A DNA stretch of 64,000 nucleotides, taken from NCBI GenBank assembly GCA_947259765.1, contig CAMYNG010000001.1, forward strand, positions 158,219 through 222,218. Direction: 5' to 3'. The translations under genes were made by a program, and so were the position numbers. The DNA comes from an uncultured Ectothiorhodospiraceae bacterium. Lineage in GTDB: Bacteria; Pseudomonadota; Gammaproteobacteria; CAMYNG01. Position 1 is the stretch's first letter. Every line of letters begins with the position of its first letter. The notes beneath the pieces are model-generated. The model searched no databases. It was not told where the DNA came from and worked only from the letters and a program-made list of their open reading frames with translations. This document shows positions 21,422 to 43,055 of this stretch, one piece after another.

Positions 21422-21527
21422 AATGGTTCTCCTGATTTCGTGGCAAGTGTATTTTATCGACAATCCACTGTCACGCACTGTGACTATTTTGACCGAATCG
21501 ACACTTTGAAGTTCATTGCTTTGGATG

Positions 21528-28767: not shown

Positions 28768-30774
28768 TTAGCCGTTAATTATATAGGAATTAGACTCCAC
28801 GAAGACTGCCAGCAAGTTTGCATCTATCTTGCCGTTGCCGGCCTCGGTATGCAGGATATCCAACGCATTTTCGGTAGACAGTCCCTGTTTGTACGGTCGA
28901 TCACCTGAAGTCAACGCATCAAAAATATCGGCAACGGTCATGATCTTCGACGGCAAGGGAATTTGCTCGCCAGTGAGTTGCCGCGGGTAACCACTGCCAT
29001 CCAATTTTTCATGGTGCGCATATGCAATATCCGGCACGCCCGCCAGATTTCCTGTCCAGGGTATGAGGTTCAAAAACGCGTAGGTGTGGGCGACATGTGA
29101 CTCGATTTCGATGCGCTCATCCGGATTCAAGCTACCCTTTGCCAAACTGAGCGTCGAGAATTCAAACGGTGTAAGCAACGGCATATGTAATTCTTCGCCA
29201 TCTCGAAATAAATATTGCGCCACTTTTTCCAAACCACTGATCTTGTCTGGAGTAATAGCAGGTTCATTGGCGCGTACCACATCCTGGAGAAAACTGTCCA
29301 AAACGCCAATCTCGCGCTTTAACTCTGAGTCAAAAATCTCGCGTCTAAGCTGAAATTCCTCAGGTGTAAGTTCCTGCTCCTGCTGCAATTGAATCAATTT
29401 GAAATAGGCATCTTTTTCTAAGCAGGCTTTGGCGTACTTAAAGCGTTGTTGTAAATGTGCAAGTTCATATTCGTGCAGTTTCTTCGCTTTGGTTAACACA
29501 TTTTCACGAACCCCGATTTTTCCGAAATCGTGCAGGAGCGCTGCGTAGCGAATTTCCCGCATTTGTTCGGCGCTGAATTGTGCGCCTTTAAATTCACCAT
29601 TATCAATACGATCAACGCAGCGCGCCAGATTTTGAGTATACTCCGCGACACGAAAGGAGTGACCCGCGGTGACCGGGTCACGCGCTTCAATTACCTGTAC
29701 CGACGCAGTAACAAATCCCTCAAACAGCGTTTCGATTTCCTCAAACAGCTGGCTGTTTTTCAGTGCGATCGCCATTTGTGAGGCAATGGCCGTGAGAATT
29801 TCCAGATCTTCCTTATTAAACTGGTTCGGACCGCGGCGGCTATCAACCTGGATCAGACCCAGCACTTCGTCTTCGTAAAGCAACGGCGCGCACATTACGC
29901 TGCGTAAAACCAGATCGATCACGGACTCCTGTTGTTTAAAGCGCTCATCACCCATTGCGTCCAGTAATAATAACGAGCGGCGATTCTGAACCACTTCATT
30001 CACGATGGTACGCGATATATTCGCCTTGCCGTTGCTTTCTGATTCCTTACCACGGGATTTAGAAAGTATTTCCCGCAGTGAGCCCCGCTTGTTCCGGCAG
30101 AGAAGAAGACTGATGTGGTCGCCCTGCTCAAAAATTTCAAAAATGCACTGGGTGATTTTCTCGCACAGTGCTGCGCGGTTTTTCGTGGCACCCAACGAAA
30201 TGCTTACCTGCGTCATGAGTGACAGGCGGCGAAGCAATTCATCGCGCTCCGCGCTCACCTGACGCCCTGCGCCTTTGAGCTCCGCCATCAGGCGTGACGC
30301 ATCAATCACCATACTCACAGATGCGCCCGCCGCAAACTCGGCGGAAGCCTCTTCGGCAACGGAGGCCGCGGGACCGCCACCCTGGCTTTCAAATTCGCGT
30401 GTTTCAACGCTTGATTCACTCGGCACCACGCCGACCGGATCCAGGCCCAGAGAAATGGCATCCTCCTCCAGCTCCACTGTGAGTTCGGTACTGCCGACCT
30501 GGATGTGGTTGCCGCTGCTGAGAGGATATAGAGTGCCCGGAACGATGGATTCACCGTCGAGCTCAGTGCCGTTGGTGGAATTCAAGTCCTGGATGAGATA
30601 TCGGTCATTCTGTTTAAGTATGCGTGCGTGGCGGCGACTGACCTCTTTGTCCGGCAGGCCGACGAAATTGCCCAATAATTCAACTTCGTCGGTAGACCGA
30701 CCAAGGTACAAATCGTTGCCCGGAATAGCCACGGGTATCGCCGAACCTGATCCAGAAATGATTATTTTTGCCAT
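28768..30774 (-). CDS. FHA-GAF-HD-GYP multidomain protein (predicted c-di-GMP phosphodiesterase)
   Basis: There is an N-terminal FHA domain (LGRSTDEVE...VSRRHARILKQNDRYLIQDLNSTNGTELDG). A central GAF-like region follows (SLLLLDAMGDERF...LGLIQVDSR). The C-terminus is HD-GYP (LLHDFGKIGV ... HHEKLDGSGYP). Confidence 0.85.
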   Translation of the reverse strand: MAKIIISGSGSAIPVAIPGNDLYLGRSTDEVELLGNFVGLPDKEVSRRHARILKQNDRYLIQDLNSTNGTELDGESIVPGTLYPLSSGNHIQVGSTELTVELEEDAISLGLDPVGVVPSESSVETREFESQGGGPAASVAEEASAEFAAGASVSMVIDASRLMAELKGAGRQVSAERDELLRRLSLMTQVSISLGATKNRAALCEKITQCIFEIFEQGDHISLLLCRNKRGSLREILSKSRGKESESNGKANISRTIVNEVVQNRRSLLLLDAMGDERFKQQESVIDLVLRSVMCAPLLYEDEVLGLIQVDSRRGPNQFNKEDLEILTAIASQMAIALKNSQLFEEIETLFEGFVTASVQVIEARDPVTAGHSFRVAEYTQNLARCVDRIDNGEFKGAQFSAEQMREIRYAALLHDFGKIGVRENVLTKAKKLHEYELAHLQQRFKYAKACLEKDAYFKLIQLQQEQELTPEEFQLRREIFDSELKREIGVLDSFLQDVVRANEPAITPDKISGLEKVAQYLFRDGEELHMPLLTPFEFSTLSLAKGSLNPDERIEIESHVAHTYAFLNLIPWTGNLAGVPDIAYAHHEKLDGSGYPRQLTGEQIPLPSKIMTVADIFDALTSGDRPYKQGLSTENALDILHTEAGNGKIDANLLAVFVESNSYIING

Positions 30775-31116
30775 TAAATCAACATGTTAAAAATTGTTAA
30801 AACCCTTTTGCCACGCGCTATGTGTAACCCTATGTGCAGAAGAAGCGTGTTACCATTAAATTTATGTTTTGATTCCGATTTTTACCAGTGCATCGCGCCG
30901 GTTTTTAAGCCTTGACCAAAATAGCAATAAATTTTCTTTTTGATTCAATAGCTTAAACTTGACTGCCAAGTCAGACACGGACACGATTGCGAATTGTTCC
31001 CCTTAACCTGAGAGCAACAATTTAAAATCCAGTATTTTCAGCTAGTTGGCTACAATTTAGACTCGTGGCCCTGCGTCAGTATGGATATAATACTTATAGT
31101 AAATCTGTAGCAAGGA

Positions 31117-31611
31117 ATGTTAGTGTCTAGCAAATTACTTAAGATACCCAAGGTTCTGATGCCGGTCAGGTTGTGGGTTCATCCTGAAGGCCAGGTCGTT
31201 GGAGCCTTGTTCGTTAAGGAGCAAGCCGAGCAGGACAACACGGCAGAACAGCCACTGGATATACTCAATCGCGCCAGTCCATTCGTCGTGGTGAGACGGC
31301 AAGAACCGGACGAACTCCGCTTCTACAATCGGGCGTCGATCATTCGTGTGGAGTATGAGGACGTGACGGAGTCCATGCCCGCCGAGGATGTCACGCTACT
31401 GCGTTGTGAGCTACAAATGATGGACGGCTCGGTTTTAGATGGCGAAATCCGAGAACCATTACCCGTTAATTTTTCCCGATTGTTTGACTACCTTAATTTA
31501 CAGGACAACAATTTTATCAAGCTGCATGTCGATTCCGTGACGGTGATTCTTGTTAACAAGTCCTATATTAATTACGCCCGAACTGCTGACCGTACCGCTG
31601 AGCAGGCTTAG
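31117..31611 (+). CDS. Hypothetical protein with internal ~65-aa duplication
   Basis: This is the first ORF of the rightward operon, and its two halves share a motif pattern (see findings). The start is uncertain: ATG 31117, GTG 31123 and ATG 31159 are all possible. Confidence 0.5.
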   Translation: MLVSSKLLKIPKVLMPVRLWVHPEGQVVGALFVKEQAEQDNTAEQPLDILNRASPFVVVRRQEPDELRFYNRASIIRVEYEDVTESMPAEDVTLLRCELQMMDGSVLDGEIREPLPVNFSRLFDYLNLQDNNFIKLHVDSVTVILVNKSYINYARTADRTAEQA

Positions 31612-31655
31612 TCAAGAATGCACCCTCGCCACATGGAGACGCCAGGTTACCCCCT

Positions 31656-34052
31656 ATGGCATTGCTGAAAGGGTTTAAGGCCAATAAGGCCATCGCCGTT
31701 CTTCTCGATGAAGCCGATAGTTCGCCCAGCGAAGTAAAGGAAGCGGTTTCAAATCTGAAACAGGCGGGCACCAAGGCCGTGCCCAAATTGATCGACGCGT
31801 TGGAAGAAAACCCTGGTAATACCACTATACTGAACCTGCTCGGCAGCATGTTGGACAACGACTCGCTGCACTACTATGCAGACGGGCTAGCACATCACAA
31901 TAAACGTATTGTCACCACCATTATGCAGATGCTGGCACAGTCACCATTGTATGATGTAAATCGTCTCTATGAGCTGTTCGATGATCCGGATATTCCGAAA
32001 AACGCTCTGCTGCAAATACTCATTGCCCGCCGCAACCAGCTTGATATTCGGAGACTTCTTGCGTTACTCGCCGACGGAAGCAAGACCGTAAAACAAATGG
32101 TTTTTCGTGTCCTGGAACACACCGCAAGTGAAAACATTGTCCCTGAACTGTTGCCGTTTGTTGATAACCCGGATCCGAAAACCCGTGCGCAACTTATTAG
32201 AGTACTGGGTCAGATTAAAGGTAATACAACCGTCAGAGATGTTTTGCTGAAAATGCTGGCGGATAAGGAAAAGTCCGTGCGCCAGGCCGCTGTTGCCGCG
32301 CTAGGAAACATGACGGTTACCGTTCCGGCTAAACCATTGGTGCAATTGCTGAAAGATCCGGATATCACCACCCAAAATAAAGCTATCGAAGCACTAACCC
32401 GAATCCGTGATCCGGAAACAATCAAGTACTTGATTGACATATTACAGGATGATTCCGAATACGTTCGCCGCGCTGCGGTTGAAGTGCTGAACGAAATCGG
32501 CGATCACCGAGCGATTAAAAATTTATTGAACGCTTTACGTGACAAGGACTGGTGGATTCGCGTTCGTGCTGCAGATGCCATGGGTACGATCGGTGGTCCC
32601 AAAGTCATTGATGCCGTCCTGATGTTAATCAAGGACGAAGACGAATTTCTTCGCCGAACAGCCGTTGAAATTCTTAATAACATCAAGGATGAGCGCGCCT
32701 CGGAGCACCTAATCGCGGCCTTGGCTGATTCAGACTGGTGGGTGCGTGAGCGTGCAGCAGACGCATTATCAAGTTTGGGAGATCAACGCGCCATCCCTGC
32801 TCTGTTAAAAATGCTTATCAACTTTCCGGACTCTGAAAAAGTCGGTGTCGGTTGCTTGCAGCAACTGACCGATCCGGAATCACTGCGTTCGACCATAGAA
32901 CATGCGGATTTTCTCGACCCGCAGGCAAAAAACTCGCTGATTCTAAAGCTGTCACAAACCGAATCGATCCCGCCCGGTCGGGATACTTCGTTCGAAAACG
33001 AACCGACCCGGGTAATGTCCTCCAACCCGACCTCTGCCAACGCTACCGTAAAAGAGAGCAAGCGAAGACGCGCCACCGACGCCACCCAGATCAGAAACAG
33101 CGCCGCCTCAGAACCCGAAATAGTCAGAAGCAATGCGCAGGATGACGCCCGAGCGCAAGAGAGCTTGAACACGCCAGCCGCGGTTTCAGCAACTGGTGTG
33201 ATCGATCCCGCCGAACTGAAACCCAATGATGTCATTGCTGATCGCTATACCGTAATCAGAAAAGTGGGAGAAGGCGCATTTGGCATAGTGTTGCTGGTAC
33301 GTGATGAAGTAGTAAACGAGGAAATAATCCTGAAATTCCTCAACGCGCATGTTGCCTCTGACAAACACATTATCCAGCGTTTTATTCACGAGCTACGCTA
33401 TTCACGAAAAATTACCCACGAAAACGTCATTCGAATTTTTGACTTCTTGACCTTTGGTAAGTCAAGCGCGATCTCCATGGAGTATTTTGAAAGTCACTCA
33501 CTGGCCTACGAAATAAAAAGTAAAAAAACAGGCGACCATAGCCGCATGCTTAAAATTCTTGTAGAGGTCTGTAACGGCCTGAGTTTTGCACACCGGGCCG
33601 GTGTAGTTCACCGCGATATCAAGCCGGCGAATATACTTATTAACGAGAACGGTGTCGTAAAACTTGTAGATTTTGGTCTGGCCGCCGCAGCCAAACATAC
33701 CGATTCGCGGTTGACGCGCAGCGGCGTCCTTGTTGGTACCCCGACCTACATGGCACCAGAGCAGGTCCGCGACAAGAAAATTGATGCGCGTACAGATATT
33801 TACAGCCTTGGCGTTCTCATGTACGAACTATTCACCGGCAAACCACCGTATCGTGGCAAAGACTCGATGGCGATTCTATTTCAGCATGTTGAAGGTAAAG
33901 CAAAACCACCGAAAACCGTTGATAAAAGTATCAATGATGAGATAAATGACATCATCATGAAGGCCATGGCCGTAAATCCAAACAAGCGTTATCAGAGTGT
34001 TGATGAGATGCGCAACAACCTGGTAAAGGCCGTCATTAAGGAGAGAGGATAA
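31656..34052 (+). CDS. HEAT-repeat protein with C-terminal Hanks-type Ser/Thr kinase domain
   Basis: About 420 aa are PBS-lyase/HEAT-like repeats (...DWWIRVRAADAMGTIG..., ...DWWVRERAADALSSLG...), followed by a low-complexity linker. The kinase motifs are GEGAFG, ILKF (Lys), HRDIKPANIL, DFGLA and GTPTYMAPE. Confidence 0.85.
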   Translation: MALLKGFKANKAIAVLLDEADSSPSEVKEAVSNLKQAGTKAVPKLIDALEENPGNTTILNLLGSMLDNDSLHYYADGLAHHNKRIVTTIMQMLAQSPLYDVNRLYELFDDPDIPKNALLQILIARRNQLDIRRLLALLADGSKTVKQMVFRVLEHTASENIVPELLPFVDNPDPKTRAQLIRVLGQIKGNTTVRDVLLKMLADKEKSVRQAAVAALGNMTVTVPAKPLVQLLKDPDITTQNKAIEALTRIRDPETIKYLIDILQDDSEYVRRAAVEVLNEIGDHRAIKNLLNALRDKDWWIRVRAADAMGTIGGPKVIDAVLMLIKDEDEFLRRTAVEILNNIKDERASEHLIAALADSDWWVRERAADALSSLGDQRAIPALLKMLINFPDSEKVGVGCLQQLTDPESLRSTIEHADFLDPQAKNSLILKLSQTESIPPGRDTSFENEPTRVMSSNPTSANATVKESKRRRATDATQIRNSAASEPEIVRSNAQDDARAQESLNTPAAVSATGVIDPAELKPNDVIADRYTVIRKVGEGAFGIVLLVRDEVVNEEIILKFLNAHVASDKHIIQRFIHELRYSRKITHENVIRIFDFLTFGKSSAISMEYFESHSLAYEIKSKKTGDHSRMLKILVEVCNGLSFAHRAGVVHRDIKPANILINENGVVKLVDFGLAAAAKHTDSRLTRSGVLVGTPTYMAPEQVRDKKIDARTDIYSLGVLMYELFTGKPPYRGKDSMAILFQHVEGKAKPPKTVDKSINDEINDIIMKAMAVNPNKRYQSVDEMRNNLVKAVIKERG

Positions 34053-35146
34053 TGCCGCGCATCAATGCCTTTCTTCAACTGGGCCGTGAGCAGGGTTGTT
34101 CTGACATTCACCTCGCAGTAGGCTCCCCACCCTTGATCCGCCTGCATGGTGAGCTTGTTGAAATTAAATATCGGGAATTCAGCGCAGATGAGCTGGAGAG
34201 CCTGGTGCTGGAAATCCTTAACGACGAACAGAAATCCATCTTTTCTGCTGGCAACGATCTCGATTTTTCCTACGATGATCCTGAAGTCGGCCGGTTTCGT
34301 GTCAATCTTTTTCGCAAGGTAACCGGTATCGGTGTAACCCTTCGGGTTATCGCGCCTGAGATCCCCAAGCTGGCGGATCTAAACTTGCCTTCCGTGGTGG
34401 AAAGCTTTCTGCATGACAACCAGGGCATCATACTTGTTACGGGTGCAACCGGAACCGGCAAAACGACGACTCTGGCCGCAATGATCGACTGGCTCAATCG
34501 GAACCGTAAATTCAACATCATCACTTTGGAAGACCCGATTGAGTTTGTACACAAGAGCAAGGAATCGCTGGTTGTTCAGCGTGAAGTCGGCACCCATCTA
34601 CGCGACTTTGCCGAAGGCCTGCGATCCGCCCTGCGCGAAGATCCGGACGTAATTCTCGTTGGTGAATTACGCGACCCCGAGACCATCTCCATGGCCATGA
34701 CTGCCGCGGAAACCGGACATCTGGTATTGGGAACCCTGCATACGACATCCGCCGTTAAGACCCTGGATCGCATTATTGATGCCATGCCCTCAGAGCAAAA
34801 ACTCCAGGCCGCCACTTTCCTCGGACAGCACTTGCGCGGCGTTATTAGCCAAAAACTCGTCCGGACCGCAGACGGACGCGGCCGAAGAGCGATCCTGGAA
34901 GTCATGGTCAATACTTCCGCAATCGCACATTTAATTCTGGGACAGAAAATTTTTCAGATACCCTCTATACTTCAAACGGGGCGTGAGCAAGGTATGCAGC
35001 TCATGGATCAAGCGCTGCTCGAAGCAATCAAAGCTAAGGAAGTCGATCCTGATGACGCATATGTCCACGCAACCGACAAAAAGCAGTTTCAAAGATTTGT
35101 CACCAACCCCGACCTCCTGCCGCAGGTAAATCTGGCGATATCCTGA
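34052..35146 (+). CDS. PilT-like hexameric ATPase, paralog 1
   Basis: The N-terminus is PilT-type (GCSDIHLAVGSPPLIRLHGEL). It has Walker A GATGTGKTTT, Walker B DVILVGELRD and His box TGHLVLGTLHT. Its ATG shares 1 nt with the kinase stop codon. Confidence 0.85.
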   Translation: MPRINAFLQLGREQGCSDIHLAVGSPPLIRLHGELVEIKYREFSADELESLVLEILNDEQKSIFSAGNDLDFSYDDPEVGRFRVNLFRKVTGIGVTLRVIAPEIPKLADLNLPSVVESFLHDNQGIILVTGATGTGKTTTLAAMIDWLNRNRKFNIITLEDPIEFVHKSKESLVVQREVGTHLRDFAEGLRSALREDPDVILVGELRDPETISMAMTAAETGHLVLGTLHTTSAVKTLDRIIDAMPSEQKLQAATFLGQHLRGVISQKLVRTADGRGRRAILEVMVNTSAIAHLILGQKIFQIPSILQTGREQGMQLMDQALLEAIKAKEVDPDDAYVHATDKKQFQRFVTNPDLLPQVNLAIS

Positions 35147-35165
35147 CTAATGCCAAGATCCACGT

Positions 35166-36293
35166 ATGAATCGCATTGATACATTTCTTGAGCTTGTTGT
35201 AAAACAGAAGGGCTCAGATCTACATTTGGTCGCAGGCAATCCGCCACGCATCCGCCTGTTCGGCGAAATGTTTCCCGTGAAATATCGTGAATTGACGGCA
35301 GACGAAAGCCAACAATTTCTCTATGAAATAATGAACGACCGGCAAATCCAGGACTTTGAGCAAAACGGCGACATTGATTTCGCCTATAACGTTCCCGGCT
35401 TATCCCGGTTTCGGGTAAATGTTTTTCATCATATTGCCGGCATGGGCGCCGTATTTCGCGCCGTTCCCAGTGAAATTCAGTCAATGAACGACCTGGGCCT
35501 GCCACCAGTACTTAAAAATCTTGCCCGGCAAAAAAAAGGCCTGATTCTGGTTACCGGTCCAACGGGTTCCGGCAAAACCACCACACTCGCCGCAATGATT
35601 GACTTCATTAATACCGAGCGCAAAGGACATATCATCACCATCGAAGACCCGGTGGAATTTCTTCACAAAAACAAGGGCTGCCTTGTCAGCCAGAGAGAAA
35701 TTGGCGCCCACACCAAAAGTTTCGCTGACGCACTACGTTCTGCATTACGTGAAGATCCGGACGTAATTCTTGTCGGCGAAATGCGCGATTTGGAGACAAT
35801 TGGTCTGGCGGTGACCGCCGCAGAGATGGGTATCCTGGTCATGGCCACATTGCACACCAGTGGTGCACCCGCGTCGGTTGACCGCATTATCAATGTGTTT
35901 CCACCGGGCGAAGAACCCTATATCAGAACAATGCTTTCAACCTCATTGTGCGGGGTTGTATCACAGGAGTTATTACGGCGAGCAGATAATCAAGGCCGTA
36001 TCGCGGCAATTGAGATTTTAGTAAACAATGCCGCCACTTCCAATATTATCCGTGAGGGTAAAACCGAACAACTTGAAAACGCCATCCAGAGTGGTGGTAT
36101 GCAGGGCATGCAAAGCATGGATAATGCCTTGCGCCGATTATTGGATGCAAAGTTGATCACCGGTGACGACGCCTTTATGAAAGCCCGGCATAAGAGTGAT
36201 TTCGAAAAATTTATTGATGTCCCGGATTCGCCCGACGTAGAGGAAATCGTAATTGACTCGGCAAGTGATCAACCTAGTTGGACTAACCAATAA
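35166..36293 (+). CDS. PilT-like hexameric ATPase, paralog 2
   Basis: The ORF has GSDLHLVAGNPPRIRLFGEM, Walker A GPTGSGKTTT and Walker B DVILVGEMRD. Its His box is altered to MGILVMATLHT. It has an acidic C-terminal tail. Confidence 0.85.
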   Translation: MNRIDTFLELVVKQKGSDLHLVAGNPPRIRLFGEMFPVKYRELTADESQQFLYEIMNDRQIQDFEQNGDIDFAYNVPGLSRFRVNVFHHIAGMGAVFRAVPSEIQSMNDLGLPPVLKNLARQKKGLILVTGPTGSGKTTTLAAMIDFINTERKGHIITIEDPVEFLHKNKGCLVSQREIGAHTKSFADALRSALREDPDVILVGEMRDLETIGLAVTAAEMGILVMATLHTSGAPASVDRIINVFPPGEEPYIRTMLSTSLCGVVSQELLRRADNQGRIAAIEILVNNAATSNIIREGKTEQLENAIQSGGMQGMQSMDNALRRLLDAKLITGDDAFMKARHKSDFEKFIDVPDSPDVEEIVIDSASDQPSWTNQ

Positions 36294-36335
36294 CTATCTT
36301 CAACACCCTGTTCAAGTTGTAAAGGCGGGAAATTA

Positions 36336-37004
36336 ATGGCAAAAATAATACTAACACTCGATGGTGCCGTAGTGCGTGAATATCCACTTGATAAAGACAG
36401 TATCAGTGTTGGACGTCGGCATGGAAATGATATTCAACTTAACGACTTAACGGTAAGTGGGCGGCACGCCTTGATTACCTCATTGGGAGACAATGTCTAT
36501 GTTGACGACTTAGGCAGCACCAATGGAACCCTGTTGAATGGCTCACGAGTTACAAAATCAGTTCTTAAACACAGTGATGTCATTCAGACAGGGAATTTTC
36601 AATTCACTTTTTATGCTGAAGACGTGGAAGAGTACGAGCCCACGATGTTCATCAAAGCGGAGATCGACGACACAAAAGAAATCACTACGGGTACAGCCAA
36701 TCATACGGAAACGAAGGGCAGCCCGCTCGCCGCGGTGCGTGTCATCAACGGACCGTTGGCTAAAAAGGTGTTGGAGCTGCGCAAGCCGTTTAATACGTTG
36801 GGTTTCAACGGAGTAAAAATGGCGGTAATAGCGCGTGAGCCGACCGGTTATACGATCTCCGGCTTAAAAAGCAACAAACTGCGCAGAGCATCGGATCTTC
36901 CTATGGTTAACGGCAACTCCATCGGGATGGAGCAAACTCCTTTACAGGAACATGACGTCATTGAACTAGCAGGAACGCAAATGGAACTTTTTTACGTTCA
37001 CTAA
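36336..37004 (+). CDS. FHA-domain protein (N-terminal FHA plus second FHA-like half)
   Basis: The FHA signature reads SVGRRHGNDIQLNDLTVSGRHALI...VDDLGSTNGTLLNG. The C-terminal half (LGFNGVKMAVIA...MVNGNSI...) has a similar beta-rich layout. Confidence 0.8.
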   Translation: MAKIILTLDGAVVREYPLDKDSISVGRRHGNDIQLNDLTVSGRHALITSLGDNVYVDDLGSTNGTLLNGSRVTKSVLKHSDVIQTGNFQFTFYAEDVEEYEPTMFIKAEIDDTKEITTGTANHTETKGSPLAAVRVINGPLAKKVLELRKPFNTLGFNGVKMAVIAREPTGYTISGLKSNKLRRASDLPMVNGNSIGMEQTPLQEHDVIELAGTQMELFYVH

Positions 37005-37069: not shown

Positions 37070-37657
37070 CTAGAATTCGCCTGCGGCGCCGCGATCCATA
37101 ATATCCCGAATGATTTTCTTCACCTTCAGCGCTTCGTTTTTCAGCTCAGGTGGCAAGGGCTCGCCGCCGTAAATCATCATGTCCATATTAAGGGAATACA
37201 ACCAAAGCTGGCCGCTTTTATCTTCAACTAGTGAGACCCGGCAGGGTAAATAGGCGGAAAACGCGTCGTCGTATTCAAGCATTTTTGCTGCCGTGAGCGC
37301 GTTACAAAACATGTAAATCTTTACGAATCGGTACGGATTTCCGGACATGGCTTCGACTTGCTTGTAAAGCGGTAGCTCACCAACATTTTTAATATTATGT
37401 TCGTTGGCAACCGAATGCATGGCTTCTTCGACATCATCGGCCGACAATCCCTCGTTTACCTTTATCTTCCAGACTGTTGCATCTGCAGCATTACCACTCT
37501 CCAGCAACCGTTGCCCCAATGCGCTGTAAACTGCCGCCGCGTTTTCGTCAAACAGACTCAGTCGGTTCAAAACTGACTCGTATCTCACAACCCCGACCAC
37601 CACCACGATCACGAATAACAAGCCAATTAGTGCAAAAAAATTTCTAACAAACGCCAT
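37070..37657 (-). CDS. Membrane-anchored DUF302-domain protein
   Basis: The protein has an N-terminal TM segment (FFALIGLLFVIVVVVGVV) and a DUF302-like core (KIYMFCNALTAAKMLEYD...YLPCRVSLVEDKSGQLWLY). Confidence 0.7.
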   Translation of the reverse strand: MAFVRNFFALIGLLFVIVVVVGVVRYESVLNRLSLFDENAAAVYSALGQRLLESGNAADATVWKIKVNEGLSADDVEEAMHSVANEHNIKNVGELPLYKQVEAMSGNPYRFVKIYMFCNALTAAKMLEYDDAFSAYLPCRVSLVEDKSGQLWLYSLNMDMMIYGGEPLPPELKNEALKVKKIIRDIMDRGAAGEF

Positions 37658-37774: not shown

Positions 37775-38512
37775 TTAGCGTGATGGATCACCGAACGGCA
37801 CGCTAGAATCCCGAGCCGTGGGTGACTGAGGTACCGAATACCGGGGCGGCGGTGGCGGGTAGTAGTAACCGTGCGGATAGGCCCCGAATCCCGGTGCGGG
37901 ACGCGCTGAATACGGTGGGGGATAGGGTGTGTAGCGATTATACGGTACCACATTTCGGGGGTACTGATAAAAATATGGGATCTGACCCGGGCTTGGCGGC
38001 GCACTGTATCTCCCCCGGTCCTTCGGCATGGCCCGATTGGGCACTACCCCTGAACCGGACATGGCGGGCGGCCTCACCTGAGGTGAAACCGGTCGCCAGT
38101 TGGGCGCCGGTGGCGTAGAGGGGCCTACGCGAGGTACACCCTGACCGGCAGGTATTCCTGGACGTGCCCCGGTCGACACACCCGGCGGAACACCATACGC
38201 GTAGCCTGTAGGCCTCGGGCTATTCGCCGCGAGTTCTTGAGGTCCGTTTTCCACAGTGTCCGGTGAGTCGGCAAACCAGAGCAATGTACCAAGAGCGACA
38301 AAAATCAATGTCGGTACAAGCACAAACCGTGATTTCCATTTGGGTACGCTCGCCGGGTTCACATCGTATCGAGACCGAGCCGACCCGGCCACGCCCAATT
38401 CTTCAAGTTTCGCCATGAGTTCCGGCTTTCGTGAAGCCGTGTTGCCCGGTTCGGGCGTGTCCTTACTGACGTCTGAGTCCTTGCCTGATTCTGCCATGAT
38501 TGAGTCACCCAT
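37775..38512 (-). CDS. Single-pass membrane protein with Pro/Tyr/Gly-rich C-terminal domain
   Basis: The protein has a charged N-terminus, one TM segment (FVLVPTLIFVALGTLLWF) and then a ~160-aa low-complexity region (PYFYQYPRNVVPYNRYTPYPPPY...YYYPPPPPRY). It starts 28 nt downstream of the dynamin-like gene. Confidence 0.55.
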   Translation of the reverse strand: MGDSIMAESGKDSDVSKDTPEPGNTASRKPELMAKLEELGVAGSARSRYDVNPASVPKWKSRFVLVPTLIFVALGTLLWFADSPDTVENGPQELAANSPRPTGYAYGVPPGVSTGARPGIPAGQGVPRVGPSTPPAPNWRPVSPQVRPPAMSGSGVVPNRAMPKDRGRYSAPPSPGQIPYFYQYPRNVVPYNRYTPYPPPYSARPAPGFGAYPHGYYYPPPPPRYSVPQSPTARDSSVPFGDPSR

Positions 38513-38540: not shown

Positions 38541-40079
38541 CTAGACGAACGAACCTTGCTCTTCCTGATCACTCGCGGCCAAATGCGGTGAACTCTGTGC
38601 CGAGCGCTCGGCGGCGAAACCGCTTGTAATGCCATCCCCCGAAGGCTTTGTGTATTTATCGTTCAAGACCTGCACGTAGTTGTCTGCAGAATCAATGATT
38701 TTCTGAATACGCCGACGCGTACGCCGCCCCCACCCCACGGGTTCTGGGCGAAACAAACTGTGGCGTGGACGGGTATTTTTCAGAAATGCCTGGATTAAGG
38801 AGCGCCGGACCATGTCTGAGTCTGTCTCGCGTTCTATGCGTTGGACCACACCTTTCGCAGCATGTTTTCGCATGCCGAAGTGTGTCACGGCAAATAGGCC
38901 GAATAAAACCGAAACCGTGGCGATTCTTCCCCACAATCCCAGGCCGGAAGTCCACCATTCGGATACGTTCGCGAGTAGCTGTGCTGTGGGTCCTGCGTTT
39001 TGCCCAAATAAATAAATTGCCGCAACAATGATAGCTAAAAACGTTACGACCAGTGTATCTCGCCAACCCACTCCGCGTCGCCAGATCCCCAAAAATCGGA
39101 CTAATTCGGGAATTCGTGATTCTTCAATACTCTTGGCAGTCTTCTCCAATGCGCCAATGACCCGGTACACGCGTTCCACATGAACTTGCTGGATCCGTTG
39201 GTGTATGGCGTCGAGATCGGTGTCTCGTTTTGATTCATACCGAGTGCGTAGTGCCTCATCTTCGATAGGCACGGCTGCATCCGGATTGTAAATACAAAAG
39301 AACTCACCTGCCGTGAGCCCGCTTTTTGCCAACGCCCGTTGCCAGGCCGCAACGACGTCTTCAGGATTATCCTCGCGCGCCGTAGTATCAATCTGATTAA
39401 GGACGTAAATAAATTTATTCGAGTCATTTCGCTCTACCCGATTCGCAACCAGATGCTCCAACGTATCTTGCATCGCACCCGGCTCCGGATGACGCGCATC
39501 GAAGAACACCAAAACAAGATCAGACAGATCAATAATGTAATCCGTAATACGTAGCGTGGAGTTGCGTTGCTCATCCGCGTCAAAGCCGGGAGAGTCGATA
39601 ATAATACTGCCTTTAAGCTTTTCGCTCGGACATGTTTTCATTTGTAAGTATGAGTCGACTCTTCCGCCCTCTCCTGGAGAAACTTTTTCCAATTCGTCTG
39701 CCATTTGGTAAAACGGAAACCTGGGATCCGCATCCAAGGAAATCCCCGGTAACACCCGGTGCGTATCGTCGGAGGAAAAACAGACAACGGTAAATTTATC
39801 GTCGACCGCCTGGGTACCCGTTTCCTGCAATGGAAACTGCAGGTAGTGATTTATAAAAGTCGACTTGCCGGCGGAAAACGTGCCCAGAAACGATATCAAA
39901 GGCCACCAGGGGATTTGTGTTGCGTAAGACTGATTACGCTGTAACAGGCCGGTACGGTAAGCGACTTTGTCCAGCTCTCGAAAACTACGCACGGCGTCGA
40001 CCAATAACTCATTTTCTTCCTGTAGGTGTTGTTCGAGCTTTTTTAGACGCTCTTGAATCGGGTTTCTGTTTGCAAACAT
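38541..40079 (-). CDS. Dynamin-superfamily (EHD/BDLP-like) GTPase with C-terminal membrane hairpin
   Basis: The nucleotide-binding motifs are G1 GTFSAGKSTFINHYL, G3 DSPGF and a G4-like NQID. The middle region is helical. Two hydrophobic segments lie near residues 345-405. Confidence 0.72.
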   Translation of the reverse strand: MFANRNPIQERLKKLEQHLQEENELLVDAVRSFRELDKVAYRTGLLQRNQSYATQIPWWPLISFLGTFSAGKSTFINHYLQFPLQETGTQAVDDKFTVVCFSSDDTHRVLPGISLDADPRFPFYQMADELEKVSPGEGGRVDSYLQMKTCPSEKLKGSIIIDSPGFDADEQRNSTLRITDYIIDLSDLVLVFFDARHPEPGAMQDTLEHLVANRVERNDSNKFIYVLNQIDTTAREDNPEDVVAAWQRALAKSGLTAGEFFCIYNPDAAVPIEDEALRTRYESKRDTDLDAIHQRIQQVHVERVYRVIGALEKTAKSIEESRIPELVRFLGIWRRGVGWRDTLVVTFLAIIVAAIYLFGQNAGPTAQLLANVSEWWTSGLGLWGRIATVSVLFGLFAVTHFGMRKHAAKGVVQRIERETDSDMVRRSLIQAFLKNTRPRHSLFRPEPVGWGRRTRRRIQKIIDSADNYVQVLNDKYTKPSGDGITSGFAAERSAQSSPHLAASDQEEQGSFV

Positions 40080-40201: not shown

Positions 40202-40729
40202 CTACCAGGGCATAAACGAGTTCATAAATGACATTGGACGGGACACACTATTGTTCATTATCGATATGTCGTAGCGCATTTGTGCCATGGAAACATTCAT
40301 TCCGCGCATATTCATCGCCATTTCATGCATGGTGGAGGACTGGTTATCCACCGTCTGGGTCATAATGACCATATTCTTTGCTACCGAATTCATATTCACG
40401 GCAACACTGTTCATGTCCTGGTTGATTGCATCCATCGTGTCCGCAACTCGACCAATATCTTGCGTGAGACTGTAAATGAGGAAAAAGCCATACGCAGCGA
40501 GTAAGACGAATGCAAACAAAGAGGGATACACAATAAGTTCCCAACGTCGTGCGCTCGCCGTAAACGCTCTTGAAAGCTGATCCAGACTCCGGCCCAGACT
40601 ATCGTCCGCCAGAACTGCGGCACGGCCTTTGTTTGCATCAAGCTCACTGCTGTCTGCGTCTTCCGAACCTGCGGGCGTATCATCCTTAACCGGTGTTTCT
40701 GCATCGGGCTGCTTTGAATTTTCTGTCAT
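40202..40729 (-). CDS. Single-pass membrane protein with Met/Asn-rich heptad-periodic C-terminal domain
   Basis: The protein has an acidic N-terminus, a TM segment (LIVYPSLFAFVLLAAYGFFLIYSL) and then DTMDAINQDMNSVAVNMNSVAKNMVIM...MHEMAMNMRGMNVSMAQM...FMNSFMPW. Confidence 0.6.
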   Translation of the reverse strand: MTENSKQPDAETPVKDDTPAGSEDADSSELDANKGRAAVLADDSLGRSLDQLSRAFTASARRWELIVYPSLFAFVLLAAYGFFLIYSLTQDIGRVADTMDAINQDMNSVAVNMNSVAKNMVIMTQTVDNQSSTMHEMAMNMRGMNVSMAQMRYDISIMNNSVSRPMSFMNSFMPW

Positions 40730-40813
40730 TACCGACTCCTGCTGATTTCAAAATTCAGTCTGAACAGCCATCGCTGAACAGACTGATACTGCTAAAAGCA
40801 ACCCAAGCACGAC

Positions 40814-41599
40814 TCACAGCAGTCCCGCCTGTGCCATTTTTCCGTTTAACTGTGATGCCTTCTCAGGATCAAGCCCTTGAATCACCATCAGTAGATAATT
40901 AAGCTGTGCCGTCTGTTTTTGCTCCAAAAGGCGGATCGCCGCTTCAAAAAAGGCGCCGCCAGCTTCTCGCCACTTGCCTTGTGTGTAGTAAACATTACCC
41001 AGTTCACCGAACGCGTCCGCGCTTTCGGGTTCCTGACGTGTGAGAGCCAGATAATGTCGCTCTGCCGATGAGAGATCACCCACGCCGTATGCCGTACGCG
41101 CCTTTTTCAACAACTGGTAGGCTTCGCTTTGTACGCGGTCACTGCTCGCTGTTTCAACACCTTGAGCGGTGTGGTCGGCCTGTGTAACGTCAGGATATTC
41201 GGCTTGAACCAGTGGCGTTTGCGCAACGTCTTGCTGAATCGGGCTTGGCTCTTGTAAAGATGGTGGTGTCGGCTCCGATGCAAGCTCCGACGCTGGAGCC
41301 TGCGTTACTGTGGATTCAACAATCTCACTTTGCAAAACCCTGTCGTCTTCGGGAATCACGGCTACAGATTCGCCCTGCTTTACGGGCTTTGATGCCGCGA
41401 TTGGCGAGGTCGTCGTCTCATCGCTTGAACTTTCAAAACTAAACTTGAGTAACTGTGGAAGCACATGCTCAATGCGTTCGTTTAGCTTGGCATTCCAGAC
41501 CTCGGGCAGCAAAAGTGTCCTATAGTAAAACCCGGCCAACAGTGCCACGAGCACTATAATAAGCACGCTATGACTCAAGATGTGTCTAATGATCTTCAT
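40814..41599 (-). CDS. Membrane-anchored TPR-repeat protein
   Basis: The protein has an N-terminal TM segment (VLIIVLVALLAGFYY), an acidic Ser/Pro/Glu linker and C-terminal TPR-like repeats (AERHYLALTRQEPESADAFGELGNVYYTQGKWREA). Confidence 0.65.
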   Translation of the reverse strand: MKIIRHILSHSVLIIVLVALLAGFYYRTLLLPEVWNAKLNERIEHVLPQLLKFSFESSSDETTTSPIAASKPVKQGESVAVIPEDDRVLQSEIVESTVTQAPASELASEPTPPSLQEPSPIQQDVAQTPLVQAEYPDVTQADHTAQGVETASSDRVQSEAYQLLKKARTAYGVGDLSSAERHYLALTRQEPESADAFGELGNVYYTQGKWREAGGAFFEAAIRLLEQKQTAQLNYLLMVIQGLDPEKASQLNGKMAQAGLL

Positions 41600-41662
41600 C
41601 CGTCAGCACCCCTGTTTGCAAAATAATCGTCGCCTGAAATCTTGTCGTCGCATGTCATCAGC

Positions 41663-42445
41663 TCATCTATTGAACTGCGAATTTTCTCTTGAGCCCGGAG
41701 GATTCGATGCACGCGTAAAATCATCGGGCACCACAAACAAGGTTGGTGATTGTTTACCGACCTTAATATTTCGGAGTTCGCGCACAAACCCGCCTTCAAA
41801 TTCCTCGCGAATCGCTATGCGAAGTTCCGGGTCGTACCATTGCACTGACTGGAGTTGCTTGCCTCCGGGTTGGGTTGCACGCATCTCCCATCTTTCGACG
41901 TCACGACCGTCTATTTTGCCTTTACCCGCCATGCTCATTTCAGCCACTGTTCCGTCCGGAAATAATTCACGTATGGGAAATTTTCGTTCCACTTCAATCC
42001 AATGCAGGCTGCGCAGATTTTGGCTGTCGACCGTGCGAACCATTTCCCATTTTTCCGCTTTTAGGCCCGCAATGATTTCAACATCCAACTTTCGACAACG
42101 GGAATTAACTCGATCTGCGCATGGACTGAAATTTTTTCTAGCCTCGCCGGTTGGTATTGTCTGCTGTGAAATTTTCTGCTCGACAAATTGCTTTACGTCC
42201 GGCCAATATAAAATGCGTTTTTGTTGTTGCGGATAAAAAATTTCCACAACAGTTCGACCGTTGATCACTGACTCAGTGCGCACGGCGTGTTTACTCACGT
42301 TCATCTGCGCATTCATTACCAGTCCTCCAGGTGAAATTTGCAGTGCATCTGCGGAAAACTCAGCAGCCACTCCTGTCGCGTTAACAACAGGAGCGCAAGC
42401 CAATAACACGCACGTAAATAAACTCGATTTCAATTTGGAGAACAT
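41663..42445 (-). CDS. Exported/lipo-protein of unknown function
   Basis: The 260-aa protein has a signal sequence (MFSKLKSSLFTCVLLACAPVVNA) and a beta-rich body. The track ORF runs on to 42964 only because an alternative frame of the neighbouring Gly-Tyr repeat gene is open. I trimmed it to the ATG at 42445. Confidence 0.6.
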   Translation of the reverse strand: MFSKLKSSLFTCVLLACAPVVNATGVAAEFSADALQISPGGLVMNAQMNVSKHAVRTESVINGRTVVEIFYPQQQKRILYWPDVKQFVEQKISQQTIPTGEARKNFSPCADRVNSRCRKLDVEIIAGLKAEKWEMVRTVDSQNLRSLHWIEVERKFPIRELFPDGTVAEMSMAGKGKIDGRDVERWEMRATQPGGKQLQSVQWYDPELRIAIREEFEGGFVRELRNIKVGKQSPTLFVVPDDFTRASNPPGSRENSQFNR

Positions 42446-42530
42446 TGATTTTATCTCCACAGAATCGTTGCGCCTGCTGATCGCGTAGCTTATCGGGGAT
42501 CGCGCACGTCCTTGTGCAAGTCCCCCCGGG

Positions 42531-43055
42531 TTATTTGTTGGCGCCAGCCGGAGGTTGCGCCGGCGGTTGCGCGGGCGGCGCCCAACCCTGACCGCCCCAG
42601 CCTGGACCATAACCTGGGCCATAACCCGGACCATAGCCACCGCCACCGTAACCAGGTCCATAACCGCCACCGCCGTAGCCGTAACCGCCATAGCCTGGGC
42701 CACGGCCGCCGTAGCCTGGGCCGTAGCCACCGTAGCCTGGACCATAGCCACCGTAGCCTGGACCATAGCCACCGTAACCTGGACCATAGCCACCGTAACC
42801 TGGACCATAGCCACCGTAACCTGGACCATAGCCGCCGTAGCCTGGGTGGCCGTAACCCCGTCCGTAGCCACTACCCCGACCGTAGCCGGAACCGGAGCCA
42901 CGCATACTGAAGTCCATGTCGCCCCAGCCGTCGCCCCAACCATTGCCGTAACCGTTATTGCCAAACGGTCCCCACCAGGCCTGGGCCGAAGTTAACGGCA
43001 TGGCGGTTGCGCCGACCAGCGCCGCGGCTGCCATTAGATGTTTTACACGTTTCAT
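42531..43055 (-). CDS. Secreted Gly/Tyr/Pro/Trp-rich repeat protein (sulfur-globule-protein-like composition)
   Basis: The signal peptide ends ...PLTSAQA/WW. The mature part is almost only G, Y, P, W and R, with six PGYGGYG heptads plus variants, and it ends in an (AQPP)n tail. Confidence 0.7.
   Translation of the reverse strand: MKRVKHLMAAAALVGATAMPLTSAQAWWGPFGNNGYGNGWGDGWGDMDFSMRGSGSGYGRGSGYGRGYGHPGYGGYGPGYGGYGPGYGGYGPGYGGYGPGYGGYGPGYGGYGPGYGGRGPGYGGYGYGGGGYGPGYGGGGYGPGYGPGYGPGWGGQGWAPPAQPPAQPPAGANK
42699..42845 (-). repeat. Tandem 21-nt coding repeat (PGYGGYG x6 plus PGYGGRG)
   Basis: The plus-strand unit ccaccgta(a/g)cctggaccatag is repeated head-to-tail. It is in frame within the 42531-43055 CDS. 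Confidence 0.85.

Follow-up and report, generated by a model that had tools for sequence, protein, structure and literature searches.

A conserved cassette joining a HEAT-repeat Hanks kinase, FHA proteins and a predicted c-di-GMP phosphodiesterase to two PilT-like ATPases

Introduction

PilT and PilU of type IVa pili, as in P. aeruginosa and V. cholerae, are PilT-family hexameric ATPases encoded by two adjacent genes. PilT is predicted to contact PilC through its AIRNLIRE motif; PilU lacks this motif, needs PilT as a bridge and grips it via a C-terminal extension (bioRxiv 10.1101/2025.10.30.685630). The H222A variant of P. aeruginosa PilT (PaPilT) is not dead, but retraction is slower and the protein detaches from the machine (PMC10187167). 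Extra PilT-family paralogues with auxiliary or uncharacterised roles are found in M. xanthus (the tandem MXAN_6705/6706) and in Geobacter (PilT1-4), and deletion of MXAN_6706 causes a partial S-motility defect (PMC13584747). A kinase/FHA/HD-GYP context has not been reported for these paralogues, unlike for the cassette described here.

Several described pathways share part of the signalling side of this cassette. Threonine phosphorylation in type VI secretion systems (T6SS) involves the PpkA kinase, the PppA PP2C phosphatase and Fha1/TagH, with an Fha-pThr-TssL pathway in Agrobacterium (PMC3953482). Similarly, the cassette places a Hanks kinase, an FHA adaptor and, in relatives, a PP2C beside the ATPase of a nanomachine, presumably for post-translational gating. 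It differs in that it contains no T6SS genes, its target would be a PilT-like pair, its soluble kinase carries a HEAT array whereas that of T6SS is membrane-bound, and a second FHA protein with a predicted c-di-GMP phosphodiesterase is added. In Xanthomonas, the HD-GYP protein RpfG has a two-component receiver input and reaches PilT/PilU via GGDEF and PilZ proteins encoded elsewhere, which is a precedent for HD-GYP contact with these motors (PMC3749722). An HD-GYP protein also appears functionally tied to PilT-family motors in the cassette, but the input is FHA/phospho-Thr, there is no PilZ protein, and the genes lie together. Bdellovibrio DgcB (FHA-GGDEF) sets a precedent for controlling a c-di-GMP enzyme through phospho-Thr, although the enzyme predicted in the cassette is a phosphodiesterase (HD-GYP or EAL) and not a cyclase. 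Finally, the Sulfolobus archaellum network comprises the FHA protein ArnA, ArnB and the kinases ArnC/D (PMC12852372), so that here too a motility machine related to type IV filaments is under the control of Hanks-type kinases and an FHA protein. This network is archaeal, acts mainly on the expression of archaellum components and includes neither PilT-like ATPases nor c-di-GMP; its sequence relation to the cassette is limited to domains.

Results

The window is a 64,000-nucleotide stretch from an uncultured Ectothiorhodospiraceae bacterium (contig CAMYNG010000001.1). The original prediction had named six ORFs in it, and we found their coordinates to match exactly:

28768..30774, minus strand: FHA-GAF-HD-GYP protein, 668 aa (Pfam FHA, GAF, HD_5)
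30775..31116, no strand: divergent intergenic (promoter) region, AT-rich, 342 bp, 37.4% GC
31117..31611, plus strand: D164, first gene of the operon, 164 aa (DUF6812 family)
31656..34052, plus strand: HK, HEAT array and Hanks kinase, 798 aa (Pfam HEAT_2, Pkinase)
34052..35146, plus strand: T1, PilT-family ATPase of clade 1, 364 aa (TIGR01420)
35166..36293, plus strand: T2, PilT-family ATPase of clade 2, 375 aa (TIGR01420)
36336..37004, plus strand: F222, FHA protein, 222 aa (Pfam FHA)

The spacer is indeed AT-rich compared with the window (~50% GC). It matched no Rfam family, and promoter-like matches within it were not above chance frequency. The HK stop and T1 start codons overlap (TAATG), with GGAGAGAGGA preceding the T1 start codon. 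All cassette proteins are predicted to be soluble. Window ORFs of at least 90 aa were picked greedily without overlap and all but two were scanned with Pfam; as had been claimed, pilus, secretin and PP2C genes were absent from the scanned ORFs, and no prepilin leader motif was detected in any frame of the window.

The neighbourhood search suggested with the original prediction revealed that the order D164, HK, T1, T2, F222 is retained in 64 loci. These belong to uncultured Gammaproteobacteria, NC10, Entotheonellaceae, Acidobacteriota and Betaproteobacteria, all cassette-bearing genomes being MAGs, and the order occurs in at least three distinct chromosomal contexts. A divergent FHA-GAF-HD-GYP gene and/or a PP2C gene joins it. 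The gap between HK and T1 is zero or negative in 57 of 66 loci. PP2C ORFs in the related loci (n=36) are mostly divergent from the operon, either beside the HD-GYP gene or in its place. The lack of PP2C in the window is a local variant. Description of the locus as self-contained was thus only partly right, since the window is missing a phosphatase that many relatives carry. Flank-gene clustering and a prepilin-motif scan detected no pilin, PilB/C, PilMNOPQ or secretin in the related loci. The order kept across phyla and contexts, the HK/T1 overlap, and the gene displacement and domain shuffling described below indicate a coherent unit and not chance neighbours, as originally proposed. The cassette is real and widely conserved; no published description of it was found in the literature, and it is apparently undescribed.

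Both ATPases score above the cutoff (319 bits) of the curated PilT/PilU model TIGR01420, T1 with 427 and T2 with 464 bits, and among PDB structures both match P. aeruginosa PilT best. T1 is 46% identical to PaPilT and 36% to PaPilU, T2 50% and 39%, respectively; these identities to PaPilT are no higher than that of Aquifex PilT. The phylogeny called for earlier resolved two separate clades grouping with neither PilT nor PilU (T1 monophyly, bootstrap 97/100, with 69% self-identity within the clade; T2, 98/100). T2 was the exclusive sister of T1 in only 1/100 bootstraps, and a search for natural T1-T2 fusions found none. By identity and phylogeny, T1 and T2 are not orthologues of canonical PilT/PilU. 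The deviations from PilT signatures listed in the original prediction are present and hold clade-wide. In T1, all catalytic motifs are intact and Walker A reads GATGTGK as in PilU, but the three charged residues of AIRNLIRE are lost and the PilU-type C-terminal extension is missing. In contrast, T2 is PilT-like in this PilC-facing motif, which is largely retained as A-x-x-N-I-I-R-E; its Walker A/B and Asp box are intact, while in 62 of 65 orthologues Ile/Val takes the place of the first histidine of the His box (EMGILV..TLHT). The gene order also differs from the canonical one, where pilU follows pilT: here the motif-poor T1 comes first. Moreover, canonical pilT-pilU do not lie in a kinase/FHA/HD-GYP operon, as T1 and T2 do.

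HK is, as predicted, a HEAT-repeat protein with a complete kinase domain (Pfam HEAT_2/HEAT_PBS repeats; Pkinase, 3.3e-57). The HEAT array spans aa 1 to ~415, followed by a variable S/T-rich linker (~415-525) and a Hanks Ser/Thr kinase (531-780). Across 69 HK orthologues all Hanks motifs are conserved, and the linker measures 91-156 aa with 18% Ser+Thr. HEAT arrays were also found fused to PilT-like modules, in 12 of 95 long PilT-like representatives. They align with the HK array over 340-410 aa at 26-28% identity (E 2e-34 to 3e-36) and are of the same subtype, with a common DWW(V/I)RERA signature. Adjoining genes at three HEAT-PilT loci encode a PilT-like protein and a Ser/Thr kinase (L083), a REC-PAS-GGDEF protein (L084) or two further PilT-like proteins (L082). 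Fusions of PilT-like modules to MshEN, cNMP-binding, GGDEF, ankyrin and WD40 domains occur as well. Because HK and T1 are translationally coupled and HEAT-PilT fusions exist in nature, we infer that the HEAT array docks on the ATPases.

The 668-aa protein is the FHA-GAF-HD-GYP fusion that had been described (FHA 1.6e-13, GAF 1.4e-14, HD_5/HD-GYP 7.9e-36), and is predicted to act as a c-di-GMP phosphodiesterase and to read phospho-Thr through its input domain. Conservation across 40 orthologues covers the FHA residues GR/S..H/N, the HD motif and HHE..DG.GYP. Its gene lies upstream of the cassette in ~40 loci, the common form, and is replaced by FHA-EAL in an NC10 locus (L041) and by a class III cyclase-FHA in locus L069. 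Hence, the cyclic-nucleotide enzyme is displaced by non-homologous types in other phyla, always fused to FHA.

F222, whose gene is single in 40 loci and a tandem pair in 15, is conserved over its full length. Its N-terminal FHA domain was confirmed (Pfam, 1.9e-20; aa 1-95) and is GarA/OdhI-like, the best Foldseek matches being GarA, OdhI and the FHA domain of Bdellovibrio DgcB. A disordered linker with the invariant Y-E-P-T103-M-F-[IVL]-x-A-E...T113 follows; pThr-binding residues of the FHA domain, T113 and the hydrophobic +3 position are conserved in 70/70 sequences and T103 in 69/70. GarA and OdhI are likewise small FHA proteins, and a flexible segment of theirs carries a phospho-acceptor Thr motif. 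In F222, however, the Thr motif comes after the FHA domain, not before it, and there is an extra C-terminal domain (aa 130-222), all-β in the AF2 model. The claim that this part is a second FHA-like half is unproven, since its profile matches that of the N-terminal FHA domain only at E=0.0055 and a probability of 6.6%.

For D164, the proposed internal duplication was seen both in the family alignment and in the AF2 model (pLDDT 85.7, pTM 0.80), which consists of two tandem small β-barrels. D164 weakly matches DUF6812 (29.8 bits, cutoff 27.1), and its ~592 homologue clusters are all unannotated. The whole chain gave no significant Foldseek match; one half resembles Hfq/LSm (Foldseek probability 0.99, TM 0.58-0.64), with weaker WYL-domain matches. 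D164 may serve as an adaptor or as a sensor of a ligand.

Discussion

We give about an even chance to the cassette being a phospho-Thr/c-di-GMP-gated accessory motor pair of the PilT/PilU type, with a type IV pilus or filament as candidate substrate. It would be a chromosomal, wholly cytoplasmic signalling-plus-motor module, of which the window carries one copy. The hexameric ATPases T1 and T2 would be co-expressed with the soluble kinase HK and held by its N-terminal HEAT array. HK would write phospho-threonine, opposed in many relatives by the neighbouring PP2C phosphatase, with its own S/T-rich linker and the T103/T113 linker of F222 as likely sites. The readers would be F222, acting as an adaptor, and the FHA-GAF-HD-GYP enzyme, which would lower c-di-GMP; the tandem β-barrel protein D164 would be an obligatory partner. 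T2, with its weakened His box, would dock on a type IV pilus/filament platform, and T1, catalytically intact without the charged AIRNLIRE residues, would add power. Since all cassette proteins are soluble, the membrane platform must be encoded elsewhere. The pair is most likely PilT/PilU-like, and the outcome would be a conditional, signal-gated retraction motor with local c-di-GMP turnover. Because T1 lacks the extension by which PilU grips PilT, the analogy may fail in detail. The data show the gene content, the intact domains, the conservation, the identity of the clades, the gene displacement and the domain shuffling; the phosphorylation partners, the cooperation of T1 with T2, a pilus substrate and the direction in which information flows are all inferred here.

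No pil genes were detected in the scanned window ORFs or, by flank-gene clustering and the prepilin-motif scan, in the related loci, and therefore the pilus link consists only of family membership and the partly kept AIRNLIRE. Canonical pilT-pilU are themselves normally unlinked to pil operons. For this reason, the absence of nearby pil genes is uninformative, and the original argument drawn from it, that the motors may act on something other than a classical type IV pilus, carries no weight. The original interpretation is supported in part: the reading as a coherent, apparently undescribed module with non-canonical ATPases is supported, this argument is not, and self-containment is only partly right.

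A non-pilus machine is a rather doubtful alternative, though one to be kept in mind. In it, T1/T2, the HEAT scaffold and D164 would form a cytoplasmic PilT-derived ATPase complex with no pilus as its target. This complex might remodel another substrate or serve as a signalling hub that depends on nucleotide state, and phospho-Thr and c-di-GMP would be its inputs or outputs. Consistent with this, filament/platform genes adjoin the ATPases in none of the window, 76 D164 loci and 4 HEAT-PilT loci, even if canonical pilT/pilU are likewise unlinked. T1 and T2 form distinct clades that lie apart from canonical PilT and PilU, PilT-like proteins make up a very large radiation (12,401 representatives at E<=1e-30), their modules are fused to many signalling and scaffold domains, and the conserved partner D164 has no counterpart in pilus systems. 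To our knowledge, however, all characterised TIGR01420 members operate on the platform of a type IV filament. In addition, T2 keeps its A-x-x-N-I-I-R-E, and the cassette encodes no alternative substrate or membrane component.

It is unlikely that information flows in reverse, the PilT-like pair reporting the mechanical state of a pilus machine, or its occupancy, to the HEAT-kinase, so that the cassette would be a surface-sensing pathway and not a regulated motor. The kinase would then recruit the FHA-HD-GYP protein via phospho-Thr, leading to lower c-di-GMP. Since HK has no sensor domain besides HEAT, it must receive its input from a partner protein, for which the operon-encoded ATPases and D164 are obvious candidates; the only FHA-fused enzymatic outputs are cyclic-nucleotide enzymes, and P. 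aeruginosa PilT participates in surface sensing (PMC10187167). Nevertheless, the same putative pilus link is required, and F222, without an output domain, is better explained as an ATPase-directed adaptor. Signalling from kinase to motor and from motor to kinase can coexist.

That T1 and T2 are simply the divergent pilT-pilU of this lineage, with unrelated signalling genes nearby, is very improbable. Two adjacent PilT-family genes above the TIGR01420 cutoff, perhaps the only ones in the genome, and the public annotation of T1 as 'twitching motility protein PilT', would fit this reading, but the conserved neighbourhood largely refutes it: the order with kinase, D164 and FHA genes is kept in 64 loci of several phyla with different flanks, HK and T1 are translationally coupled, and shuffled HEAT-PilT/kinase/GGDEF variants occur. 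The identities (46-50% to PaPilT, 36-39% to PaPilU), the tree and the missing PilU extension of T1 argue in the same direction. Anti-phage defence or mobile-element cargo using the kinase and the ATPases is scarcely credible, since the PADLOC kinase models matching HK (PD-T4-6, MADS, BREX PglW) recognise only a generic kinase domain, the other cassette proteins have no meaningful PADLOC match, D164 homologues number 0 on 72,556 plasmids and 0 in 50,697 phage records, and the genes surrounding the locus are housekeeping ones (PBP1b, NlpC/P60, sbcB, dapDE, bamA-lpx) in vertical-looking synteny.

Gene content of the locus

An ORF check of the window found the six genes of the locus at exactly the positions given in the original prediction:

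28768-30774 (-), 668-aa FHA-GAF-HD-GYP protein, divergent from the other five genes
31117-31611 (+), D164, a 164-aa protein and the first gene of the operon
31656-34052 (+), HK, a 798-aa HEAT-Hanks kinase
34052-35146 (+), T1, a 364-aa PilT-like ATPase
35166-36293 (+), T2, a 375-aa PilT-like ATPase
36336-37004 (+), F222, a 222-aa FHA protein

Pfam and NCBIfam confirmed the domains that had been read from the sequence, namely FHA, GAF and HD-GYP in the 668-aa protein, an array of several HEAT repeats preceding a complete Hanks kinase domain in HK, and an FHA domain at the N-terminus of F222. No transmembrane segment was found in any of the proteins. The stop codon of HK overlaps the start of T1 (TAATG), and a strong Shine-Dalgarno sequence precedes. 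The spacer between the divergent units (30775-31116) is AT-rich, as had been noticed, with a GC content of 37.4% versus about 50% in the window. No riboswitch or RNA element was detected at E<=1 in these 342 bp or elsewhere in the 28-38 kb region, and no σ54 or σ28 promoter matched upstream of the operon in the window.

The remainder of the window is ordinary chromosome, carrying lpxA-fabZ-lpxD-skp-bamA-rseP-dxr-cdsA-frr-pyrH-tsf-rpsB, map-glnD, dapD/dapE and genes for a DinG-like helicase, PBP1b, an NlpC/P60 protein, a dynamin-like GTPase, an RND pump and a σ54 activator. No pilin, PilB/C, PilMNOPQ, secretin or PP2C gene was found in it, in agreement with the original prediction, and no prepilin leader motif was found in the window.

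Conservation of the cassette across genomes

Homologues of D164 form about 592 clusters, all without annotation. When a genome collection was scanned with the D164 alignment, 76 loci were recovered, nearly all from MAGs of Chromatiales, Ectothiorhodospiraceae, Thiohalophilus and unclassified Gammaproteobacteria. A few were assigned to NC10/Methylomirabilis, Entotheonellaceae/Tectomicrobia, Betaproteobacteria and Acidobacteriota; all the carriers are MAGs, and this phylum range may be inflated by binning errors. Using the window proteins in tblastn, we observed the order D164, HEAT-kinase, T1, T2 and F222 in nearly every locus with a sufficiently long contig. Full-length T1 and T2 were both present in 64 loci; a single F222 gene was found in 40 loci, and two in tandem in 15. 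Large contigs of cassette-bearing assemblies include CALNYZ010000018.1 (2.1 Mb), CAWJSJ010000002.1 (2.7 Mb), CAWHLH010000003.1 and JALVOC010000089.1, and the window itself lies on a 229-kb contig. The divergent upstream position is held by the FHA-GAF-HD-GYP gene with no PP2C gene, the arrangement seen in the window, by a PP2C phosphatase gene alone, or by both. The lack of a phosphatase that had been pointed out is therefore true of the window, but it is a local variant of the cassette.

The flanks vary by lineage (PBP1b/NlpC-P60, exonuclease I/PP2C, motAB-fliA, RND pumps). They contain no pilus genes in the related loci, and no platform or pilin gene was found either in the window or in these loci. 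A decayed cassette was detected in a complete 2.5-Mb chromosome (CP070733; L001/L007, 10001-12048), where a remnant of D164 stands with a HEAT protein devoid of kinase. This HEAT-only protein has 508 aa and lies in the same PBP1b/NlpC-P60 context, and CP070733.1 has lost the kinase domain along with the FHA protein and both ATPases. In one gammaproteobacterial locus (L074), a retropepsin-like aspartyl protease (15086-15754 (+); gag-asp_proteas, 8e-26) replaces the FHA protein after T2.

A loose σ28/FliA-like pattern, TAAA-N15-GCCGA[T/A], was seen upstream of D164 on the opposite strand, aimed at the divergent HD-GYP or PP2C gene. It occurs in nine mostly related loci, including L024, L026, L035, L053, L059 and L062, or in eight once duplicate upstream regions are removed, versus 0.6 expected. 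In one locus (L004), the cassette adjoins motAB-fliA-flhG. A motility regulon is hinted at, but the pattern does not match in the window and is shared by loci that are not independent, so we considered this promoter too weak to be used as evidence.

T1 and T2 as two old subfamilies of the PilT family

Both ATPases are PilT-like as predicted, scoring 427.3 bits (T1) and 463.9 bits (T2) against the TIGR01420 model, whose curated cutoff is 319.1. Mean identity within each clade is 69% for T1 and 67% for T2, versus 46% between T1 and T2. Identity to P. aeruginosa PilT (PaPilT) is 46% for T1 and 50% for T2, similar to the 52% between PaPilT and Aquifex PilT, and identity of T1 and T2 to P. aeruginosa PilU and to a second PilU-like structure falls to 36-39%. 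The PilT radiation comprises 12,401 representatives at E<=1e-30, and a neighbour-joining tree with bootstraps was built on a sample including 150 diverse representatives of it. T1 was monophyletic in 97 of 100 bootstraps and T2 in 98, and with the tree rooted on PilU, PaPilT fell outside the clade spanned by the two.

The identities and the separate clades of the tree therefore indicate that T1 and T2 are two old, distinct subfamilies of the PilT family and not the pilT-pilU pair of this lineage. As orthologues of canonical PilT they would be expected to group with bona fide PilT at high identity, which they did not. As PilU, they would be expected to group with PilU in sequence and to carry its extended C-terminal segment that wraps PilT; neither was found, T1 having no C-terminal extension and T2 only a short variable tail. 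A recent tandem duplication is rejected, as the two were exclusive sisters in a single bootstrap of 100.

The deviations from PilT motifs that had been noticed in the two ATPases hold throughout both clades and are complementary. In T1, the Walker A Lys, the Asp box, the Walker B Glu and the two histidines of the His box are present in 65/65 orthologues, and Walker A has the PilU form (GATGTGK); its version of the PilT motif AIRNLIRE reads A-I-a-N-L-I-l-n, with all three charged residues gone. T2 keeps Walker A and B, the Asp box and the second His-box histidine, the first being replaced by Ile or Val in 62 of 65 orthologues. Its version of the motif is A-v-a-N-i-I-R-E, in which R290 is gone and the other residues are kept or conservatively changed. 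The canonical motif is thus missing from T1 and only partly retained in T2. AIRNLIRE lies at the predicted interface between PilT and PilC and is missing from PilU, and PilU gets to the machine through PilT only (10.1101/2025.10.30.685630). In PaPilT, the H222A substitution, equivalent to the change at the first His-box position of T2, slows retraction and leads to detachment from the machine without abolishing function (PMC10187167).

Signalling proteins of the cassette

HK has the features of a Hanks-type Ser/Thr kinase. Its Pkinase match has an E-value of 3.3e-57, and the GxGxxG, catalytic Lys, αC Glu, HRDxKxxN, DFG and (S/T)xxYxAPE motifs are at least 95% conserved across 69 orthologues. 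The linker between the HEAT array and the kinase is variable (91-156 aa) and contains 18% Ser plus Thr. Phospho-threonine-binding residues are retained in both FHA proteins: in F222, G26, R27, S41, H44 and N63 are present in 70/70 sequences, and in the HD-GYP protein the GR, S..H and N residues of the pocket are conserved in 40 orthologues. The latter also has a HD_5 match (7.9e-36) with conserved LHDFGK and HHE..DG.GYP, and by these motifs is a predicted c-di-GMP phosphodiesterase.

The FHA domain of F222 is GarA/OdhI-like, and that of DgcB, a diguanylate cyclase from Bdellovibrio, is also among its closest folds. Next comes a disordered linker with an invariant Y-E-P-T103-M-F-[IVL]-x-A-E...T113 motif, a plausible candidate for phospho-acceptor and FHA ligand because the +3 position is hydrophobic. 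As for the second FHA-like half proposed for F222, an all-β C-terminal domain does exist, but its likeness to FHA is only weak.

The internal duplication of D164 was borne out, the AlphaFold2 model consisting of two tandem small β-barrels (pLDDT 85.7, pTM 0.80). D164 scored 29.8 bits against DUF6812 (PF20660; gathering threshold 27.1), the match covering only the C-terminal repeat, and precomputed PF20660 hits exist on many of its homologues. We rejected D164 as a PilZ-type c-di-GMP receptor: there was no Pfam PilZ match, and the Foldseek matches included Sm/Hfq-like barrels only and no PilZ structure.

Related combinations in other lineages

Three kinds of evidence speak for the cassette being a single functional module, namely non-homologous displacement, Rosetta-stone fusions and domain shuffling. 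In an NC10 locus (L041), the gene adjoining D164 encodes an FHA-EAL phosphodiesterase, and in a betaproteobacterial locus (L069), T2 is followed by a PP2C gene and then by a class III cyclase-FHA gene. A cyclic-nucleotide enzyme fused to FHA therefore recurs as a component, irrespective of the fold of its catalytic domain.

HEAT arrays were also found fused directly to PilT-like ATPases. They are the commonest recognisable addition among the 95 long PilT-like representatives scanned (12 cases, compared with six for the c-di-GMP-binding MshEN domain). These arrays align with the HEAT region of HK over 340-410 residues and share a DWW(V/I)RERA repeat signature; the BLAST significance of such comparisons is inflated by the repeats, but the common signature is nonetheless specific. 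Downstream of the HEAT-PilT fusion gene there is one more PilT-like gene in both L083 and L084, together with a Ser/Thr kinase gene in L083 and a REC-PAS-GGDEF gene in L084. In L082 the fusion gene is followed by two more PilT-like genes, and in L085 it lies near a kinase gene only. The small clusters look like a kinase-permuted sibling of the cassette of the window. The same set of parts recurs in unrelated lineages: at least two PilT-like ATPases with a HEAT array, accompanied by a Hanks kinase, a c-di-GMP enzyme or both. The fusion proteins of L082-L085 have about 920-950 aa, and at least some come from Myxococcota MAGs. The two additional PilT-like genes of L082 could not be assigned as T1 and T2 orthologues, being about 50% identical to T1, T2 and PaPilT alike.

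Natural single-chain double-PilT proteins of 716-1024 aa (P0247-P0253 and P0256) were also encountered. They contain two complete PilT modules, one of which has degenerate His-box residues in several of them, and they appear to be unstudied. Their modules are 32-48% identical to T1 and T2 and belong to other, separate lineages, so we did not retain them as Rosetta stones for a T1-T2 pair.

Comparison with known systems

Among known systems, those closest to the cassette are the PilT-PilU pair, the T6SS threonine-phosphorylation pathway, the Xanthomonas RpfG-PilZ-PilT/PilU complex, the FHA-regulated DgcB and the GarA/OdhI switches. The cassette mixes features of all of them and belongs to none. 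Membership in the T6SS pathway would place the kinase, PP2C and FHA genes within a TssA-M, Hcp and VgrG cluster; no T6SS genes are present in the window, and with the TagH model F222 reaches 37 bits, below the cutoff of 120. A role in anti-phage defence is rejected, as PADLOC matched the generic kinase domain only, PADLOC-DB gave no match for D164, F222 or the HD-GYP protein and P-loop-level matches only for the ATPases, the locus lies among housekeeping genes, and plasmids and phages carry no D164 homologue.

In a search of 8 million full texts, we found nothing on DUF6812 and no report with a comparable tie between PilT and FHA, HEAT, Hanks kinase or PP2C, and a kinome atlas makes no mention of the cassette. 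Public annotation calls its proteins 'PilT', 'FHA domain-containing protein' or 'hypothetical'.

Motors of the PilT family rank among the most powerful molecular machines known. To our knowledge, their regulation is understood only via c-di-GMP effectors acting on PilB and via the PilT-PilU partnership. With the cassette, phospho-threonine control (Hanks kinase, PP2C and FHA) would for the first time be seen hard-wired to PilT-like ATPases and coupled to c-di-GMP degradation. The cassette is common in sulfur-cycle Gammaproteobacteria from the environment and in several other phyla. It also leads to a broader group of unstudied HEAT-PilT fusions and multi-PilT clusters, which bear on the role of the many 'extra' PilT paralogues of bacterial genomes and on the evolution of the PilT/PilU type of division of labour.

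Possible mechanism and substrate

Starting from the composition, conservation and motif states observed, we infer all interactions, the direction of signalling and the substrate in the following model, which has the best support. The HEAT array would tether the kinase to the T1/T2 pair, and the kinase and PP2C would set phospho-threonine marks on the HK linker and on F222. F222 and the HD-GYP enzyme would read these marks through their FHA domains, linking the state of the motor with local c-di-GMP. By analogy with PilT/PilU, T2 may dock on a platform and T1 may supply full catalytic power. The HEAT-ATPase interface, the T103/T113 motif of F222, the complementary motif losses of T1 and T2, and the DUF6812 protein as a partner all offer testable handles.

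A non-pilus substrate, a less likely alternative, had been proposed on the grounds that no pilus genes lie nearby. This argument does not hold: canonical pilT and pilU are likewise unlinked to pilus genes, and the absence of pilus genes from the neighbourhood is therefore uninformative. Being soluble, the cassette needs a platform encoded elsewhere. A bolder reading, which we regard as unlikely, is that HEAT-array proteins with at least two PilT-clade ATPases form a new and widespread class of cytoplasmic, pilus-independent machines derived from PilT, with connections to cyclic-nucleotide enzymes, Hanks kinases and FHA readers. The hexamers would then be signal-processing or remodelling engines, and DUF6812 a dedicated ligand- or substrate-binding subunit.

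Other features of the window

DUF302-domain proteins with N-terminal hydrophobic segments flank the region on both sides (20891-21685 (-) and 37070-37657 (-)), one of them directly adjoining the 3' end of the cassette. Just downstream, on the opposite strand, lies a bacterial dynamin-like GTPase (38541-40079 (-); Dynamin_N 1.5e-12) with hydrophobic segments at its C-terminus, followed at 40202-42964 (-) by three further proteins, one DUF948-like, one with TPR and an unknown one of 433 aa; the adjacency of the GTPase to the cassette is not conserved in other loci. The sole other c-di-GMP enzyme found in the window is a HAMP-GGDEF diguanylate cyclase (62970-63914 (-)), 26 kb from the HD-GYP gene. 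A Pro-rich protein without Pfam matches is encoded at 37775-38512 (-). Another ORF of this kind, 499 aa long (44032-45531 (-)), accounts for a GC spike (63.8%) and a strong AT skew at 44-45 kb; after a signal-peptide-like N-terminus it has about 12 degenerate repeats, each of about 24 aa and rich in Pro, Gln and Arg (…RPDWAQRPxPxYQPPARxxxSQAPxQRTAPP…).
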